DNA of 64,000 nt from an uncultured Gammaproteobacteria bacterium (GCA_964521295.1 CAZFRF010000001.1:140675-204674), one strand, 5' to 3'. Counted from the stretch's first letter, positions 3,236 to 47,485 are shown. Notes: generated by a model from the letters alone, not told the origin. Made by a program: numbers and translations.

Positions 3236-5668
3236 ATGCTTGATTACGCAAGAAGATCAAGAAGACGAAGTAGTTATTTTACCCTGTCACTTCCAAATAT
3301 TCCTGGATTAAATAAGGGATTTAAAAGTTTAAATAATACACCTAAAATTGAAATTTACAGTAGGCTTTTAAAGTTTGCATTTATCGGTTTAATTGGGTTA
3401 ATTGTTTTTATGGTCTTTCTCTTTATTTGGTATGGAAGAGATTTGCCTGCTCCTGGAAAATTAGTCGAAGCGCAAGCAAATGGATCAAGTGGTATTTATG
3501 ATCGAAATGGTGAGCTTCTCTACTCTGTTTACCAAGATCAGAATAGAATTTACGTAAAACTAGATAAAATTCCTAAATATCTCCAGCAAGGTACGATTGC
3601 CATTGAAGACAAGAATTTCTACGCCAACAAAGGCTTTTCTTTTACAGGTTATATTAGAGGACTTATTATTGATCCAATTTTGCGAAGAAGAGTAACAGGG
3701 GGCTCTACAATAACCCAGCAGTTAGTTAAAAATGTCTTACTTACCAGTGAAAGAACATTGCCTCGTAAGGTAAAAGAGCTTATGCTCTCTATTCAGGTTG
3801 ATAGAAAATATTCAAAAAATGAAATCTTAGAAATGTACTTAAATGATGTTCCTTATGGTGGGACAGCTATTGGTGTTCAAGCTGCAGCGCAAGTATACTT
3901 TAGTAAAGATGTTAAAGACTTAACTTTAGGTGAATCAGCTTTTCTAGCTGGTCTTCCTCAGGGGCCAAGTCTTTACTCGCCTTTTTCTGGGAATAAATAC
4001 TACTTAGCTAGAACTCAGGCTGTTTTAAATCAAATGGTAAATCAGGGTTACGTAAACAGAGCTCAAGCAGACAAAGCATATAAAGAGATTGAAGCTAAAA
4101 AATTTGCCCAAACCCCTGTAGGTATTAAGGCTCCTCATTTTGTTATGTACGTCAAGCAACTTTTAATTAATCAGTTTGGTGAATCGGCAGTTGAGAGTGG
4201 AGGCTTAAGAGTTAAGACTACTTTGGATTATAAGATAGAAAAAGAGGCCGAGAAAATTGTTAATGAAGAAATAGGCAAACTAAAAAATTATAAAGTTGGA
4301 AATGGTGCCGCCATGGTTACGAGTCCCAAGACGGGTGAAATATTAGCAATGGTTGGAAGTGAAGATTATTTTAATATTAAAAACGATGGTAATTTCAATG
4401 CAGCGACAGCATATAGACAACCTGGATCCTCCCTTAAGCCTTTAACTTATGCAGTTGCCTTCTCTAAGGGCTATACACCTTCGACTCTTTTATTAGATAC
4501 TGAAACAAATTTTAAAGCAACTGATACTGAGAAAGATTATATTCCTGGAAATTACGATGGAAAGTTTAGAGGACCAGTTCAGGTAAGATTTGCGCTTGCT
4601 AATTCTTTGAATATACCAGCAGTAAAAATGTTGGCAATGGTAGGTGTAAAAAATGTAATGCAAAAAGGCTATGAAATGGGAATTGAAAATTGGCAGCCAA
4701 CTGATGATAACTTAAGGAATGTTGGTTATTCTCTTGTTTTAGGGGGAAGAGACGTTCGCTTAGTTGATCAAATGGAGGCATATGGAGTTTTTGCCAATGG
4801 TGGAGAAAAGCAACCGTTAGTATCAATTCTTGAAGTTCGTGACGCCAAAGGTAATGTAATATACAAATATAATCCTCCCTCTTCTCAGAGAATTTTTTCT
4901 CAAGAAATTAGTTTTCTAATTTCTCACATTTTACTTGACAATACAGCCAGAAGCGCAACTTTCGGGCAATATTCATATTTAAATGTTCCCAATCATCCAA
5001 GTGTTTCAGTAAAAACAGGTACTACAGATCAAAAAAGAGATAATTGGACAGTTGGATATACAAAATCATTTGTTGTTGGAACATGGGTTGGAAATAACAA
5101 CAATACACCGATGGGAAACATCTCCTCAGGTGTAACTGGAGCTGCTCCGATTTGGAATAGGATTATGAGTTTTGTTTTAAAAGGAAAATCCGATGAGCCT
5201 CCACAAAAACCAGATAACGTAGTAGCTTTAACTATTGATGCGTACGGCGGTGGATTACCAGTAGACGGAAGGCCAACTAGGAGTGAGTATTTTATAAAAG
5301 GGACTGAGCCAACTACTCCAGCAGCGATTTATCAAAAAGTAAAATTATCTAAGCATCAAGGAGGAAAATTAGCAAATTCTGCAGAGATCTCGGCAGGTGA
5401 TTATGATACTAAAGATTTTATAGTGTTTGCTGAAAAAGACCCAATTTCAGTTGATGGAAAAAATAGATGGCAAGATGGAATCACTGCTTGGTTAAAGAAA
5501 ACATTTGCAGCAGATCATCCTGAGTATTATCCCCCAACAGAAACTTCTGATTATAAACCAGGAGAAAATAATTCAAATAATAACAACAATAATCCTACTT
5601 CGACCCCTTCACCTACTCCAACGGGGATTATTCCAACAGTTTCTTTAACCTTAACTCCTACTCCTTAA
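3236..5668 (+). CDS. class A penicillin-binding protein (bifunctional transglycosylase/transpeptidase, PBP1A-type)
   Basis: N-terminal TM helix; GT51 motifs EDKNFY, GGSTITQQL, RKVKEL; transpeptidase SxxK (GSSLKP) and KTGT motifs. The C-terminus is an Asn-run plus a Pro/Thr/Ser low-complexity tail. Confidence 0.85.
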   Translation: MLDYARRSRRRSSYFTLSLPNIPGLNKGFKSLNNTPKIEIYSRLLKFAFIGLIGLIVFMVFLFIWYGRDLPAPGKLVEAQANGSSGIYDRNGELLYSVYQDQNRIYVKLDKIPKYLQQGTIAIEDKNFYANKGFSFTGYIRGLIIDPILRRRVTGGSTITQQLVKNVLLTSERTLPRKVKELMLSIQVDRKYSKNEILEMYLNDVPYGGTAIGVQAAAQVYFSKDVKDLTLGESAFLAGLPQGPSLYSPFSGNKYYLARTQAVLNQMVNQGYVNRAQADKAYKEIEAKKFAQTPVGIKAPHFVMYVKQLLINQFGESAVESGGLRVKTTLDYKIEKEAEKIVNEEIGKLKNYKVGNGAAMVTSPKTGEILAMVGSEDYFNIKNDGNFNAATAYRQPGSSLKPLTYAVAFSKGYTPSTLLLDTETNFKATDTEKDYIPGNYDGKFRGPVQVRFALANSLNIPAVKMLAMVGVKNVMQKGYEMGIENWQPTDDNLRNVGYSLVLGGRDVRLVDQMEAYGVFANGGEKQPLVSILEVRDAKGNVIYKYNPPSSQRIFSQEISFLISHILLDNTARSATFGQYSYLNVPNHPSVSVKTGTTDQKRDNWTVGYTKSFVVGTWVGNNNNTPMGNISSGVTGAAPIWNRIMSFVLKGKSDEPPQKPDNVVALTIDAYGGGLPVDGRPTRSEYFIKGTEPTTPAAIYQKVKLSKHQGGKLANSAEISAGDYDTKDFIVFAEKDPISVDGKNRWQDGITAWLKKTFAADHPEYYPPTETSDYKPGENNSNNNNNNPTSTPSPTPTGIIPTVSLTLTPTP

Positions 5669-45027: not shown

Positions 45028-46116
45028 TTATCTTTTCCCCTCTTTTTCAATAAATTCTTTTAGTACTTTATAAAAGAGATTTAAACTTTTTATATCAATC
45101 CACTCTTTTTCACTATGTAAATTACCTCCCTTTGGTCTAGTTAAAATTACAGGAATATTTTTTTCTACGAAAAATCTAGCGTCTGATGAGCCATGCGAAT
45201 TGATAAATCCAGTTTTTATTTTATTTTTAGATAAAATTTCTAAAAAAGATTTTAAAAATTTATCACTTTTATCGATTTTATAACTTACACCTTTAGTTTT
45301 AATTTCAATATCAATATTTTTAAATTTTCTCTTAATATTCTTAATCCTTTTAAAAACTTCTTTAAAATTAGTATCAGGTGTAAATCTAATGTCTATCCCC
45401 GCTTCAGCATAATTAGGAACTTGATTGGTAGCATTGCCACCAGAAATCTTACCAATATTTAAGGTTGTGTGATAATGTTTCGGATCATTGCATGGTTCAT
45501 TATTGAATTCATTTCTTAGGTCTAAAAGAAAGTCTGTCAAATTATTGATAGCATTCTTGCCAAGCCATACTCTTGCTCCATGAGCTGAAATTCCTTTACT
45601 TTTAACAACAATTGAGATTGCGCCTTTAGCACTTTCTTCAATTGTCCAATTTTCTCCCCCATCAGGAATAATTGCTAATTTAGACGAGTAACCACTTTCA
45701 AGTATTTTACTTGTACCATTGAATCCTCCAATTTCTTCATCGCTAACAAGCATAATTCCGAAGTCATATTGTTTTAAATTTTTATTTATATCTTTTAATA
45801 GAAAAATATAGCTAGCTACTGCAAATTTCATATCAAATACTCCTCTACCAATTAATTTATTACCTATAATTTTTGGAGCAAACATTTTATCTGATCCAGC
45901 AACTACATCGACGTGACCATTCAGCCAGATTTTCGGAGTTTTGGTTTTACGAGTTGTTATTAAAAGAGCTGAGTGATTATTTGATTTAAATAAAGTTGTA
46001 AATACTGGTAAATTGCTAATTTCATTTTTTATCCATAACAAAGCTTTCTCATTTTCATGAGTATCATTAGTTATAGTTTTAAATTCAACTAGTGTTTTTA
46101 ATAAATCATCTAACAT
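45028..46116 (-). CDS. M20-family metallopeptidase (ArgE/DapE/carboxypeptidase-like)
   Basis: HVDVV metal-binding region, GVFDMK, the catalytic-Glu region DEEIGG, and a C-terminal His (NSHGSSD). Confidence 0.65.
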   Translation of the reverse strand: MLDDLLKTLVEFKTITNDTHENEKALLWIKNEISNLPVFTTLFKSNNHSALLITTRKTKTPKIWLNGHVDVVAGSDKMFAPKIIGNKLIGRGVFDMKFAVASYIFLLKDINKNLKQYDFGIMLVSDEEIGGFNGTSKILESGYSSKLAIIPDGGENWTIEESAKGAISIVVKSKGISAHGARVWLGKNAINNLTDFLLDLRNEFNNEPCNDPKHYHTTLNIGKISGGNATNQVPNYAEAGIDIRFTPDTNFKEVFKRIKNIKRKFKNIDIEIKTKGVSYKIDKSDKFLKSFLEILSKNKIKTGFINSHGSSDARFFVEKNIPVILTRPKGGNLHSEKEWIDIKSLNLFYKVLKEFIEKEGKR

Positions 46117-46117
46117 A

Positions 46118-47080
46118 TTAAGTTTTCACCACAACTGGACCAGAGAGTGAATCTCCTGCACCGTGAATCTTTAAATTATATCTCGCATTCCATGATCCAC
46201 CTAAACACTCCCACTCAGTTGTGTTTGTATTATATCCAAAGAAAACTCTATATATCATCCACTTAAATTCATCTGATATCCCACTTTCCATAGGTGGGAA
46301 AAAACTCTGGCAATATACTCCACCTGATTCTAAACCGTCTTTTACTGCTTGCTCAATTCTTCCTCTTGAGGATGCGCCCGGTGGCCTTTTACTACCTGGT
46401 CCAGGAACATAGATAAACACATCTCTGGTTTTACTGCCTTGCAACGGTTTAATTACACATGCAGAATCAAAATCTATTTCTTCTGGTGTTGTAACTTTTT
46501 TCCATAATCCTAAGCCTTCTCCATAGCTCTTGTCCCCTTTTTTCTTTAAAGAACTAACGCTACGAGGTTCTAGGAAATGGTAGCCTGTCTCATCTGGTTC
46601 CGCGCGAACAAGGACAAGGTCTTCGGTATTTCCTTCTTCTAACCTATCAATCCATAAATGATCATCTGTTGCTTTTCTTCTGGGATCATCTGAGACAACA
46701 GATTTAAATACGGGCCAGGTAGTTCGGATTAAATCTAGTCTTTTTTGAAAATCTGGATTAAGAGCCCCAGTTAAACCAATACCAGATGGTCTTTCTTCGA
46801 CTTCATATATTCCCAAGGTATCATCTTGAACAGCACAATCTAGTCTGATGATTAAAGATGGAATGTTAAACTCTCTTTGTACAAATGTTTCTTCTTTAGG
46901 AAATATTTGTGTCCATCTATTTATTGCAGCTAAACTATCAGTAATATTTCTATCCGTAAATGGTCTTTCTTGGGGTAATACTTTAATATTCCATCCTCCA
47001 ATCACCATATCCTGAAATCCTAAGTTACTAGGAGCATTAGGCGTAGTTAGTAATGGTGGTTCAAGTTCTTTCATAAACAT
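46118..47080 (-). CDS. ATP-grasp-like protein (320 aa), G+C-rich, translationally coupled to the downstream M20 peptidase
   Basis: ACVIKPLQGSKTRDVFIY resembles the ATP-grasp K-loop (vvKP..GS.G.gV). Its stop lies 1 nt before the M20 start. Assignment is tentative. Confidence 0.35.
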   Translation of the reverse strand: MFMKELEPPLLTTPNAPSNLGFQDMVIGGWNIKVLPQERPFTDRNITDSLAAINRWTQIFPKEETFVQREFNIPSLIIRLDCAVQDDTLGIYEVEERPSGIGLTGALNPDFQKRLDLIRTTWPVFKSVVSDDPRRKATDDHLWIDRLEEGNTEDLVLVRAEPDETGYHFLEPRSVSSLKKKGDKSYGEGLGLWKKVTTPEEIDFDSACVIKPLQGSKTRDVFIYVPGPGSKRPPGASSRGRIEQAVKDGLESGGVYCQSFFPPMESGISDEFKWMIYRVFFGYNTNTTEWECLGGSWNARYNLKIHGAGDSLSGPVVVKT

Positions 47081-47168
47081 AAAAAAACCTCCCCTTTAGG
47101 GAGGTTTATCTCTTTTTAGCTTAAAATATATTAAGCCACAGAAATACCTCCCTTCTTAAGGAAGTGGT
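47081..47168 (-). promoter_or_regulatory. leader/terminator element C, ending 7 nt before the ATP-grasp-like gene start
   Basis: Terminator hairpin cctccc-cttta-gggagg with U-tract, AT palindrome gcttaatatattttaagc, and small hairpin cttc-ttaag-gaag/GGGAGG. The SD equals the 3' arm of the terminator. Confidence 0.55.
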
Positions 47169-47217
47169 ATGTAAACCAATATTGACAATTTGTTAAAATC
47201 ATTTGTTTCATAAACAT
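47131..47217 (-). CDS. candidate leader peptide ORF (28 aa, MFMKQMILTNCQYWFTYHFLKKGGISVA)
   Basis: It starts with the same ATGTTTATGAAA as the ATP-grasp-like gene (a duplicated 5' segment) and is preceded by element D. Its C-terminal codons overlap the small hairpin of element C, and its stop is the first codon of the AT palindrome. Confidence 0.3.
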   Translation of the reverse strand: MFMKQMILTNCQYWFTYHFLKKGGISVA

Positions 47218-47285
47218 AAAAAAACCTCCCATTTGGGAGGTATCAATTTGCCATTTGGCAACACAATTACCTCCCGTTAAGGAAA
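47218..47285 (-). promoter_or_regulatory. leader/terminator element D, upstream of the 28-aa ORF
   Basis: Terminator cctccc-attt-gggagg with U-tract, palindrome ttgccaaatggcaa, and small element cctcccgttaaggaaag. Its spacer is similar to element A. Confidence 0.5.
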
Positions 47286-47330
47286 GTATAGTGCCAAAAT
47301 TTGCATAAATTTATTTTCATCTTAAAGTCC

Positions 47331-47359
47331 ATTCTAGCTATTTTTTATAGGATTGTCAA
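47331..47359 (-). promoter_or_regulatory. near-consensus promoter TTGACA-17-TAGAAT (minus strand) driving element D and the leader ORF
   Basis: RC of 47354-47359 is TTGACA and RC of 47331-47336 is TAGAAT. Confidence 0.4.
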
Positions 47360-47373
47360 ATATTCACAGAATA

Positions 47374-47410: not shown

Positions 47411-47485
47411 GGTGGATGTAGCTCAGCAGCAGAGCGTCTGGTTGTGGTCCAGAAGGTGGCGGGGGCGGCACCCGTCTTCCACCCA
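47411..47485 (+). tRNA. tRNA-His (GUG)-like gene with non-canonical D- and T-loops (possibly divergent tRNA or pseudogene)
   Basis: G-1 paired to C73, acceptor gtggatg/cttccac (one U-U mismatch), anticodon stem tctgg/ccaga with loop TTGTGGT. The D-loop AGCAGCA lacks G18G19, and the T-loop GGCGGCA replaces TTCRANT. Overall it is similar to bacterial tRNA-His. Confidence 0.4.

Follow-up and report, generated by a model that had tools for sequence, protein, structure and literature searches.

Tandem leader-peptide attenuators with a conserved tryptophan codon predicted to control an ATP-grasp-fold ligase and M20 hydrolase operon in Patescibacteria

What controls a two-gene operon in which a predicted ATP-grasp-fold ligase gene is followed by an M20 hydrolase gene, and whose upstream DNA is filled with short open reading frames (ORFs) and hairpins? 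The operon lies on the minus strand of a 64,000-nucleotide (nt) stretch of DNA from an uncultured bacterium (GCA_964521295.1, CAZFRF010000001.1:140675-204674), the whole of which is called the window here. A first-pass annotation had read a 28-amino-acid (aa) ORF ahead of the gene pair as the leader peptide of a ribosome-mediated attenuator or, alternatively, as a small precursor peptide for the two enzymes. Our analysis supports attenuation and makes it specific, with the tryptophan (Trp) codon as the sensed codon: we consider it highly probable that tandem ribosome-mediated attenuators sensing Trp-tRNA(Trp) control the operon of a GspS/YgiC-like ligase and an ArgE/DapE-type M20 enzyme. The Trp codon of the leaders, the pairing and folding of the RNA, and a sister unit with Phe codons ahead of pheST in the same window together argue for classical ribosome-mediated Trp-tRNA attenuation in tandem. 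The transcription start, the translation of the short ORFs, ribosome stalling and induction by Trp shortage are what we infer from the DNA. The order on the minus strand is a promoter, two tandem units (called D and C), each made of an ORF, an antiterminator and a terminator, the 320-aa ligase gene and the M20 gene:

47359-47331, minus strand: sigma-70-type promoter-like site, TTGACA at 47359-47354, 17-nt spacer, TAGAAT at 47336-47331 (11 of 12 matches)
47320-47267, minus strand: leader ORF 1 (unit D), 17 aa, MKINLCKFWHYTFLNGR and stop codon; Trp codon UGG at 47296-47294
47288-47268, minus strand: switch hairpin of unit D, region 1 UACUUUCC at 47288-47281 and region 2 GGGAGGUA at 47275-47268
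47242-47235, minus strand: region 3 of unit D, UACCUCCC
47241-47218, minus strand: terminator 1 (unit D), ACCUCCC AAAU GGGAGGU with a tail of seven U residues (U7) to 47218
47217-47131, minus strand: leader ORF 2 (unit C), 28 aa, MFMKQMILTNCQYWFTYHFLKKGGISVA and stop codon; Trp codon UGG at 47178-47176
47165-47146, minus strand: switch hairpin of unit C, region 1 ACUUCCUU at 47165-47158 and region 2 AGGGAGGU at 47153-47146
47105-47098, minus strand: region 3 of unit C, ACCUCCCU
47107-47085, minus strand: terminator 2 (unit C), intrinsic terminator-like hairpin, with U7 to 47081
47080-46118, minus strand: ORF of the 320-aa protein, predicted ATP-grasp-fold ligase
46116-45028, minus strand: ORF of the 362-aa M20 protein, 1 nt after the ligase stop codon

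All coordinates of the first-pass annotation (the 28-, 320- and 362-aa ORFs and the 1-nt gap) were confirmed, and the duplicated start that it had described for the 28-aa ORF and the ligase gene is real. Units D and C can be aligned at 77% column identity; each ends in a GC-rich CCUCCC-loop-GGGAGG hairpin, U7 and then AUGUUUAUGAAA, and the 25 nt GGGAGGTTTTTTTATGTTTATGAAA are identical downstream of both terminators. The window contains four copies of the pattern CCTCCC-N3-6-GGGAGGTTTT, where zero would be expected. What had been called element D does lie upstream of the 28-aa ORF but is not a bare element, as it has a 17-aa ORF of its own, so that the leader consists of two complete ORF-plus-hairpin units in tandem. 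The AUG of leader ORF 1 lies only 10 nt past the -10 box and the ORF is therefore probably leaderless or nearly so. For leader ORF 2, the 3' arm of the unit D terminator, GGGAGG, stands 7 nt ahead of the AUG as a candidate Shine-Dalgarno sequence, and the 3' arm of the unit C terminator, GGGGAGG, is positioned as the predicted Shine-Dalgarno sequence of the 320-aa gene. The true start of that gene may be the second ATG, at 47074, judging from homologues that begin MKE.. and in which M3 is nearly invariant.

Comparison was made with 72 related loci (given below by L numbers) found in scans of genome and metagenome collections. Genome records with meaningful names all belong to the Patescibacteria, or candidate phyla radiation (CPR), among them Levybacteria, Doudnabacteria, Moranbacteria, Paceibacterota, Wildermuthbacteria, Spechtbacterales and Saccharibacteria, and a few automated "Gammaproteobacteria" labels of metagenome-assembled genomes in this set look wrong. 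A short ORF and an intrinsic terminator are present upstream of the ligase gene in about three-quarters of the loci, including those encoding N-terminally extended forms of about 450 aa. At least three other lineages have tandem units as well: L009, L029 and a Saccharimonadales group (L020, L022, L048, L057 and L062). Most related loci show a -35/-10 pair with the AUG of the first unit 6-10 nt past the -10 box, a spacing that implies a leader ORF with little or no 5' untranslated sequence.

The key feature of both leader peptides is UGG, in frame and once per peptide; the general aromatic richness of the 28-aa peptide, on which the first-pass annotation had remarked, is not decisive. Trp is encoded in 43 of the 47 leader ORFs compiled, usually once, while neighbouring proteins contain 1.6% Trp, and TGG counts are 47 in the frame of the leader ORFs and 20 and 13 in the two others. 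Trp mostly has Phe, Tyr or Leu as its neighbours, and the peptides, 15-42 aa in length, are otherwise diverse in sequence; a conserved regulatory codon thus sits amid a drifting peptide, as in an attenuator.

The reading frames themselves are conserved in sequence, with translation predicted. In relatives at 85% protein identity (L075 and L076), both tandem units and both frames are kept despite synonymous changes and N-terminal insertions or deletions (indels) of whole codons. Leader ORF 1 has identical or near-identical in-frame counterparts in these two loci, with a synonymous AAA to AAG change, and leader ORF 2, whose conservation the first-pass annotation had made a condition of its proposal, retains its frame and the core CQYWFxYHFL in L075, L076 and L079, with N-terminal indels of 3n nt; the frame is also kept in L078 (synonymous changes and 3n indels). 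In one further unit, L048b, an indel after the Trp region gives a wholly different C-terminal peptide and leaves the RNA pairing segments unchanged. The frames kept as far as Trp, together with this frameshift, point to selection on the start codon, on the frame up to Trp and on the RNA, but not on the C-terminus of the peptide.

The second line of evidence comes from RNA pairing. Every lineage has, within the leader ORF or immediately after it, a segment (region 2) with complementarity to the 5' arm of the unit's own terminator (region 3); in unit D, region 2 also matches region 1 in this way. In the 28-aa ORF, the codons for HFLKKGG form the small hairpin CUUCCUU/AGGGAGG, as had been noted, and the 3' half of this hairpin pairs with the 5' arm of the terminator, in agreement with its proposed role as the antiterminator partner; the stop codon lies within the 5' arm of a GCUUAA...UUAAGC hairpin. 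Regions 2 and 3 shift together between lineages: the pair is GGGAGGTA/TACCTCCC here and AGAGATCGGTTTGT/ACAAACCGATCTCT in Saccharimonadales, and ATCCCGGCTTGGTGATTT/AAGTCACCAAGCCGGGAT and AGGCCGGTTTTGGTTTG/CAAACCAGAATCGGCTT are among the further co-varying pairs. The mean duplex energy is -21.5 kcal/mol for cognate and -11.9 kcal/mol for non-cognate pairs, and for 31 of 39 units the cognate partner ranks among the top 3 of 38, the near-ties being close relatives. An alignment of 11 Saccharimonadales-type units was uninformative for covariation because the pairing segments are almost invariant.

The placement of the codons agrees with this pairing. UGG is never less than 10 nt from the antiterminator strand, so a ribosome paused there would leave region 2 exposed, and the stop codon lies inside region 2, just past it or at most about 10 nt ahead of it, where a terminating ribosome would mask the region. 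In the window, as in most related loci, an intrinsic terminator lies between the leader ORF and the structural gene, and the antiterminator, which excludes it, is placed where stalling of the ribosome would promote it and translation termination would prevent it. Folding of the free RNA of unit D gives the region 1:2 hairpin and the terminator; with a ribosome footprint masked on UGG it gives the region 2:3 antiterminator and no terminator, and with the ribosome masked at the stop codon it gives the terminator. In unit C, too, the terminator forms when the ribosome is placed at the stop codon and the antiterminator when it is placed on UGG. For the comparison across units we used a crude model, an equilibrium fold of only the RNA downstream of the ribosome, in place of masked folds that allowed pairs across the ribosome and gave physically impossible structures for L037 and L004. 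In this model 24 of 43 units switch, and the terminator forms in 40 of 43 when the ribosome is at the stop codon.

A third line of evidence is provided by sister attenuators in the same window, which the first-pass annotation had missed. At 9015-8914 (minus strand), a unit with Phe codons has a leader ORF (9015-8962; MNLRNFFGFYFTIPNGR and stop codon, containing FFGFYF) followed by AACGGGAGGUAA, a CCUCCC/GGGAGG terminator and U7. Downstream lie a 72-aa ORF (8895-8677) without a family match and then pheS (8646-7600) and pheT (7598-5658), which score above the cut-offs of TIGR00468 and TIGR00472, respectively. The C-terminus of the Phe leader matches that of unit D residue for residue (T-x-x-NGR and stop), and Phe codons stand where unit D has Trp. 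We take the Phe unit to be a paralogue of unit D, with pheST, the classical target of a Phe leader, downstream.

Two more units precede a pair of paralogous proteins: one at 16578-16465 (minus strand), with leader ORF MNYKFEFKSKNNFLKGGLFA, lies ahead of a 260-aa protein with a weak match to a nucleotidyltransferase domain (PF01909, E-value 3e-4), and another at 15610-15518 (minus strand), with leader ORF MKLVCRNFADLINA, lies ahead of a 309-aa protein that had no match in a search of NCBIfam. Asn-Phe is common to the two leader peptides, each of which ends at a stop codon. The window thus holds at least five units, at pheST, at the two nucleotidyltransferase-like genes and, as the tandem pair, at the ligase/M20 operon, and leader-peptide attenuation appears to be a general device of this organism.

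We propose that transcription would start a few nt ahead of the AUG of leader ORF 1. When Trp-tRNA is plentiful, the ribosome would proceed to the stop codon and cover region 2, and region 3 (CCUCCC) would pair with region 4 (GGGAGG) to form the terminator. When Trp-tRNA is scarce, a ribosome stalled with UGG in the A site would break the region 1:2 hairpin and leave region 2 exposed to pair with region 3 as the antiterminator, allowing polymerase to proceed. The freed region 4 would then act as the ribosome-binding site of leader ORF 2, where the decision would be repeated, and the 3' arm of terminator 2 would act as the ribosome-binding site of the ligase gene. Use of a freed terminator 3' arm for ribosome binding at the next ORF would link transcriptional and translational control, and two switches in series would be expected to lower basal expression, sharpen the response and multiply discrimination.

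Several observations weigh against this proposal. Trp is missing from four of the 47 leader ORFs (L008, L019, L030 and L032) and from two outside that set (L043 and L058). Three of these six leaders (L019, L032 and L043) are rich in Phe and Tyr, and some lineages may accordingly sense more than Trp; since Phe/Tyr codons also flank Trp in many leaders, the signal may be aromatic amino acids generally. One sensor codon per leader, compared with at least two in classical trp leaders, would give a weak response, which the tandem arrangement may offset. For 16 of 43 units the terminator persists with a ribosome on UGG in the simple equilibrium fold. In Rfam, the Trp_leader model (RF00513) reaches 32.3 bits versus a threshold of 41 and the Phe_leader model (RF01859) 34.3 and 33.0 bits versus 55, and these matches are driven mainly by the terminator. 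In addition, the gene pair lacks a leader in L006, L011, L013, L014, L017 and L059. Finally, the regulated enzymes have no known link to Trp, and a ligase is an odd enzyme to induce under starvation.

Other explanations of the short ORFs are far less probable. A TnaC-like sensor of free Trp, in which arrest of the nascent peptide would induce the operon when Trp is in excess, would account for the one conserved Trp and its short hydrophobic or aromatic surroundings, which resemble those of W12 in TnaC, and conjugating and deconjugating enzymes could fit the handling of an excess. Such arrest requires Trp to lie at a set distance from the arrest site, but the distance from Trp to the stop codon varies from 1 to 19 codons and the position of Trp is independent of ORF length. 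Moreover, a ribosome arrested at the stop codon would sit over region 2, so that termination, the default state, would be favoured; the units have intrinsic terminators with the classic 1:2, 2:3 and 3:4 alternatives rather than a Rho site; and in the paralogous leader of pheST there are runs of Phe codons, the hallmark of codon sensing. We therefore regard a TnaC-like sensor as very unlikely. It is highly improbable that the ORFs are incidental to attenuators that bind a ligand or a protein (a riboswitch, or a system like TRAP or PyrR). Riboswitches and T-boxes, too, typically have tandem layouts and alternative terminator and antiterminator folds, and an Rfam scan of the region at permissive thresholds gave weak sub-threshold matches that included PyrR along with Phe_leader and Trp_leader. 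That scan, however, found no riboswitch or T-box and no family at threshold, and nothing resembling an aptamer is conserved, only the complementary segments, which differ wholly between lineages. The enrichment of TGG in frame, the constant position of the AUG beside the promoter and the survival of reading frames through indels likewise speak against this explanation.

The alternative raised at the outset, that the small ORFs encode precursors of ribosomally synthesized and post-translationally modified peptides (RiPPs), modified by the ligase and trimmed by the M20 enzyme, with the hairpins setting the ratio of precursor to enzymes, found so little support that we give it almost no credence. 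RiPP clusters are known in which a small ORF precedes an ATP-grasp gene and a peptidase gene, a Trp is conserved in each of the peptides here, and in RiPP clusters the precursor gene is commonly followed by a partial terminator. The peptides, however, share no motif beyond one Trp over their range of lengths and lack the cores of Thr/Ser/Lys plus Asp/Glu that characterise ATP-grasp RiPPs (microviridin and omega-ester peptides). The 3' half of the peptide-coding sequence is the antiterminator strand and co-varies with the terminator, and the C-terminal half of the peptide is not conserved, being altered by the L048b frameshift in which the RNA pairing segments stay invariant. Several lineages also keep the enzyme pair without a small ORF, and the sister Phe-codon unit stands ahead of pheST. 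Tandem attenuation by Trp-tRNA(Trp) accordingly remains the reading that we prefer for this leader.

The 320-aa protein itself belongs to a family that profile searches do not recognise. It has no match in Pfam or NCBIfam; among its family of 55 homologues, only one weak match to these collections was found, of one homologue to ATPgrasp_YheCD (E-value 0.067), and a profile of the 55 sequences had no match in Pfam or among PDB sequences. A word-index search found only 56 relatives, compared with 438 clusters at 50% identity in an exhaustive profile search of 1.84 billion representatives. An AlphaFold2 model built on the family alignment has a mean predicted local distance difference test score (pLDDT) of 93.7 and a predicted template-modelling score (pTM) of 0.90, and its close structural neighbours are all small-molecule acid-amine ligases. 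The model thus predicts an ATP-grasp fold with the topology of GspS and eukaryotic glutathione synthetase, so that the first-pass description "ATP-grasp-like" is right, but by fold only, since the profile searches gave no match for the window protein. The family alignment has invariant columns at K184, K211, D81, E93, D139, R278 and H306. Going by the modelled fold, the protein is a GspS/YgiC-type acid-amine ligase of an uncharacterised family, seen here only in Patescibacteria.

Some members of this family differ in architecture or number. A subfamily of 440-460-aa homologues has an N-terminal extension of about 150 aa without a Pfam match, and a second conserved, GC-rich structured segment (e.g., GGTAGGCCTCCCTGACTAGTACGGGGGGCCTACCAGGCC and GGCTTGGAGCGCCGGGGAGACTAGTACCCCCGGCACTCCAGGCC) lies between the leader terminator and the start of the genes for the extended forms (L015, about 3440-3560; L018, about 3480-3600; also L005 and L007). 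Three loci (L009, L032 and L073) carry two paralogous ligase copies, in the order ligase-M20-ligase or ligase-ligase-M20.

The downstream protein of 362 aa matches Peptidase_M20 (PF01546, E-value 3e-22) and M20_dimer (PF07687, E-value 6e-19) in Pfam, and we assign it by sequence to the M20 metallohydrolases of the ArgE/DapE deacylase family. Its original description as an M20 peptidase therefore holds at the level of these domains, but not for any DapE, ArgE or LysK equivalog, as it falls below every curated cut-off: the best match is TIGR01910, at 171.5 bits versus a cut-off of 217.6, and DapE models give 108-153 bits versus 284-381 and TIGR01902 77 versus 163. The ligase/peptidase order is conserved: in 53 of about 72 loci the ligase homologue is directly followed by an M20 gene. 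In the Saccharibacteria loci L025-L028 and L031, the M20 gene is replaced by one for an N-terminal-Cys protein of about 260 aa of the GATase_4 family, a class-II amidotransferase-type N-terminal nucleophile (Ntn) hydrolase. The exchange of one amidohydrolase for an unrelated one suggests that the job of the second enzyme is amide cleavage related to the ligase chemistry. In four of these five loci (L026, L027, L028 and L031) a gene for a DUF5671 membrane protein lies about 1 kb further downstream, and in three of the four a gene on the opposite strand lies between the GATase_4 and DUF5671 genes.

No neighbours beyond the two genes recur across the 72 loci; upstream genes, among them those for MetRS and response-regulator-like proteins, are lineage-specific. 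In the window, a tRNA-His(GTG) gene (47412-47484, plus strand) lies directly upstream of the operon promoter and is divergent from it. Its T-arm is atypical and GC-rich and its tRNA model score is low (41 bits); it is syntenic in L075 and L076.

What might the enzyme pair do? The fold neighbours of the ligase (GspS and glutathione synthetases) and both alternative hydrolases are related to enzymes whose substrates are gamma-glutamyl or N-acyl amides, namely ArgE/DapE-type M20 enzymes and class-II GATase-like enzymes such as EgtC and yeast Dug3. By analogy, we speculate that the pair functions in amide-conjugate metabolism, perhaps releasing an amino acid last, and our working guess is that it makes and then cleaves an amide conjugate (possibly gamma-glutamyl or N-acyl) for tryptophan acquisition in these auxotrophs. 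The wider idea, that the ligase/amidohydrolase pair is a Patescibacteria-specific route of Trp or aromatic acquisition or salvage and that attenuation is a major strategy in reduced genomes, we offer tentatively and consider rather doubtful; one possible form of such a route would be a ligate-then-cleave cycle that frees Trp from a host-derived compound.

Patescibacteria are a large, mostly uncultured group with tiny genomes, few recognisable regulators and many uncharacterised genes, and our results suggest that they use classical leader-peptide attenuation. In full-text literature searches, no paper was found that connects Patescibacteria, CPR or Saccharibacteria with leader peptides or attenuation. 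The two-gene module is restricted to CPR, where it is found across Microgenomates, Parcubacteria and Saccharibacteria, and the conserved Trp codon gives a first testable clue to its physiology, namely that the module would be on when Trp-tRNA is scarce. Leader sensor codons could similarly be mined for amino-acid links of other CPR genes.

As for the enzymes, the locus resembles the LysX/LysK (ArgX/ArgE) carrier pathway in that an ATP-grasp ligase gene lies beside an M20 gene of the ArgE/DapE deacylase family; the LysX/LysK amino-group carrier system (a RimK/LysX-type ATP-grasp enzyme, a LysW-like carrier gene and a LysK deacylase) was considered as a candidate and rejected. Compared with GspS, YgiC/YjfC, trypanothione synthetase and Cp1B of the E-64 pathway, which joins a dicarboxylic acid to an amino acid (PMC12568646), the 320-aa protein shows 9-12% identity and no profile match. 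It is also much smaller than the GspS-type ligases, and its partner hydrolase is a separate protein (M20 or class-II GATase-like) and not a fused CHAP amidase.

The leader itself is most like trpL and pheM of Enterobacteria (RF00513 and RF01859), with which it shares sensor codons in a leader ORF, a 2:3 antiterminator, a 3:4 intrinsic terminator and the masking of region 2 by a ribosome at the stop codon; the Phe unit of the window has the same target as pheM of Escherichia coli. Unlike trpL and pheM, however, the units have one Trp codon rather than at least two, and the first has its AUG almost at the predicted transcription start, with no Shine-Dalgarno sequence. Two full units stand in series, with the 3' arm of a terminator serving also as the putative site of ribosome binding for the ORF that follows. 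Neither trp biosynthesis nor trpS is the target, the host phylum is Patescibacteria, and the scores are below the Rfam thresholds.

Other known leaders share single features with this one. Mycobacterial leaderless polycysteine short ORFs are Cys-responsive attenuators (bioRxiv 10.1101/834739) in which, as here, a leaderless short ORF comes first and its sensor codons control a downstream operon; the present system differs in amino acid and phylum, in its read-out by intrinsic terminator and antiterminator, and in being often tandem. The mgtCBR leader of Salmonella has tandem ORF-dependent attenuators that respond to ATP and proline-tRNA (PMC3641672). It likewise places two short-ORF attenuators in series, but these take different signals, whereas the paralogous units described here would sense the same codon. 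Tandem T-boxes and riboswitches are similar in having two regulatory elements in series. Because the regulatory mechanism is a textbook one, the advance is in scope and target rather than in principle: a classical mechanism is extended to a poorly understood phylum, where the ligase family that it would control is also uncharacterised.

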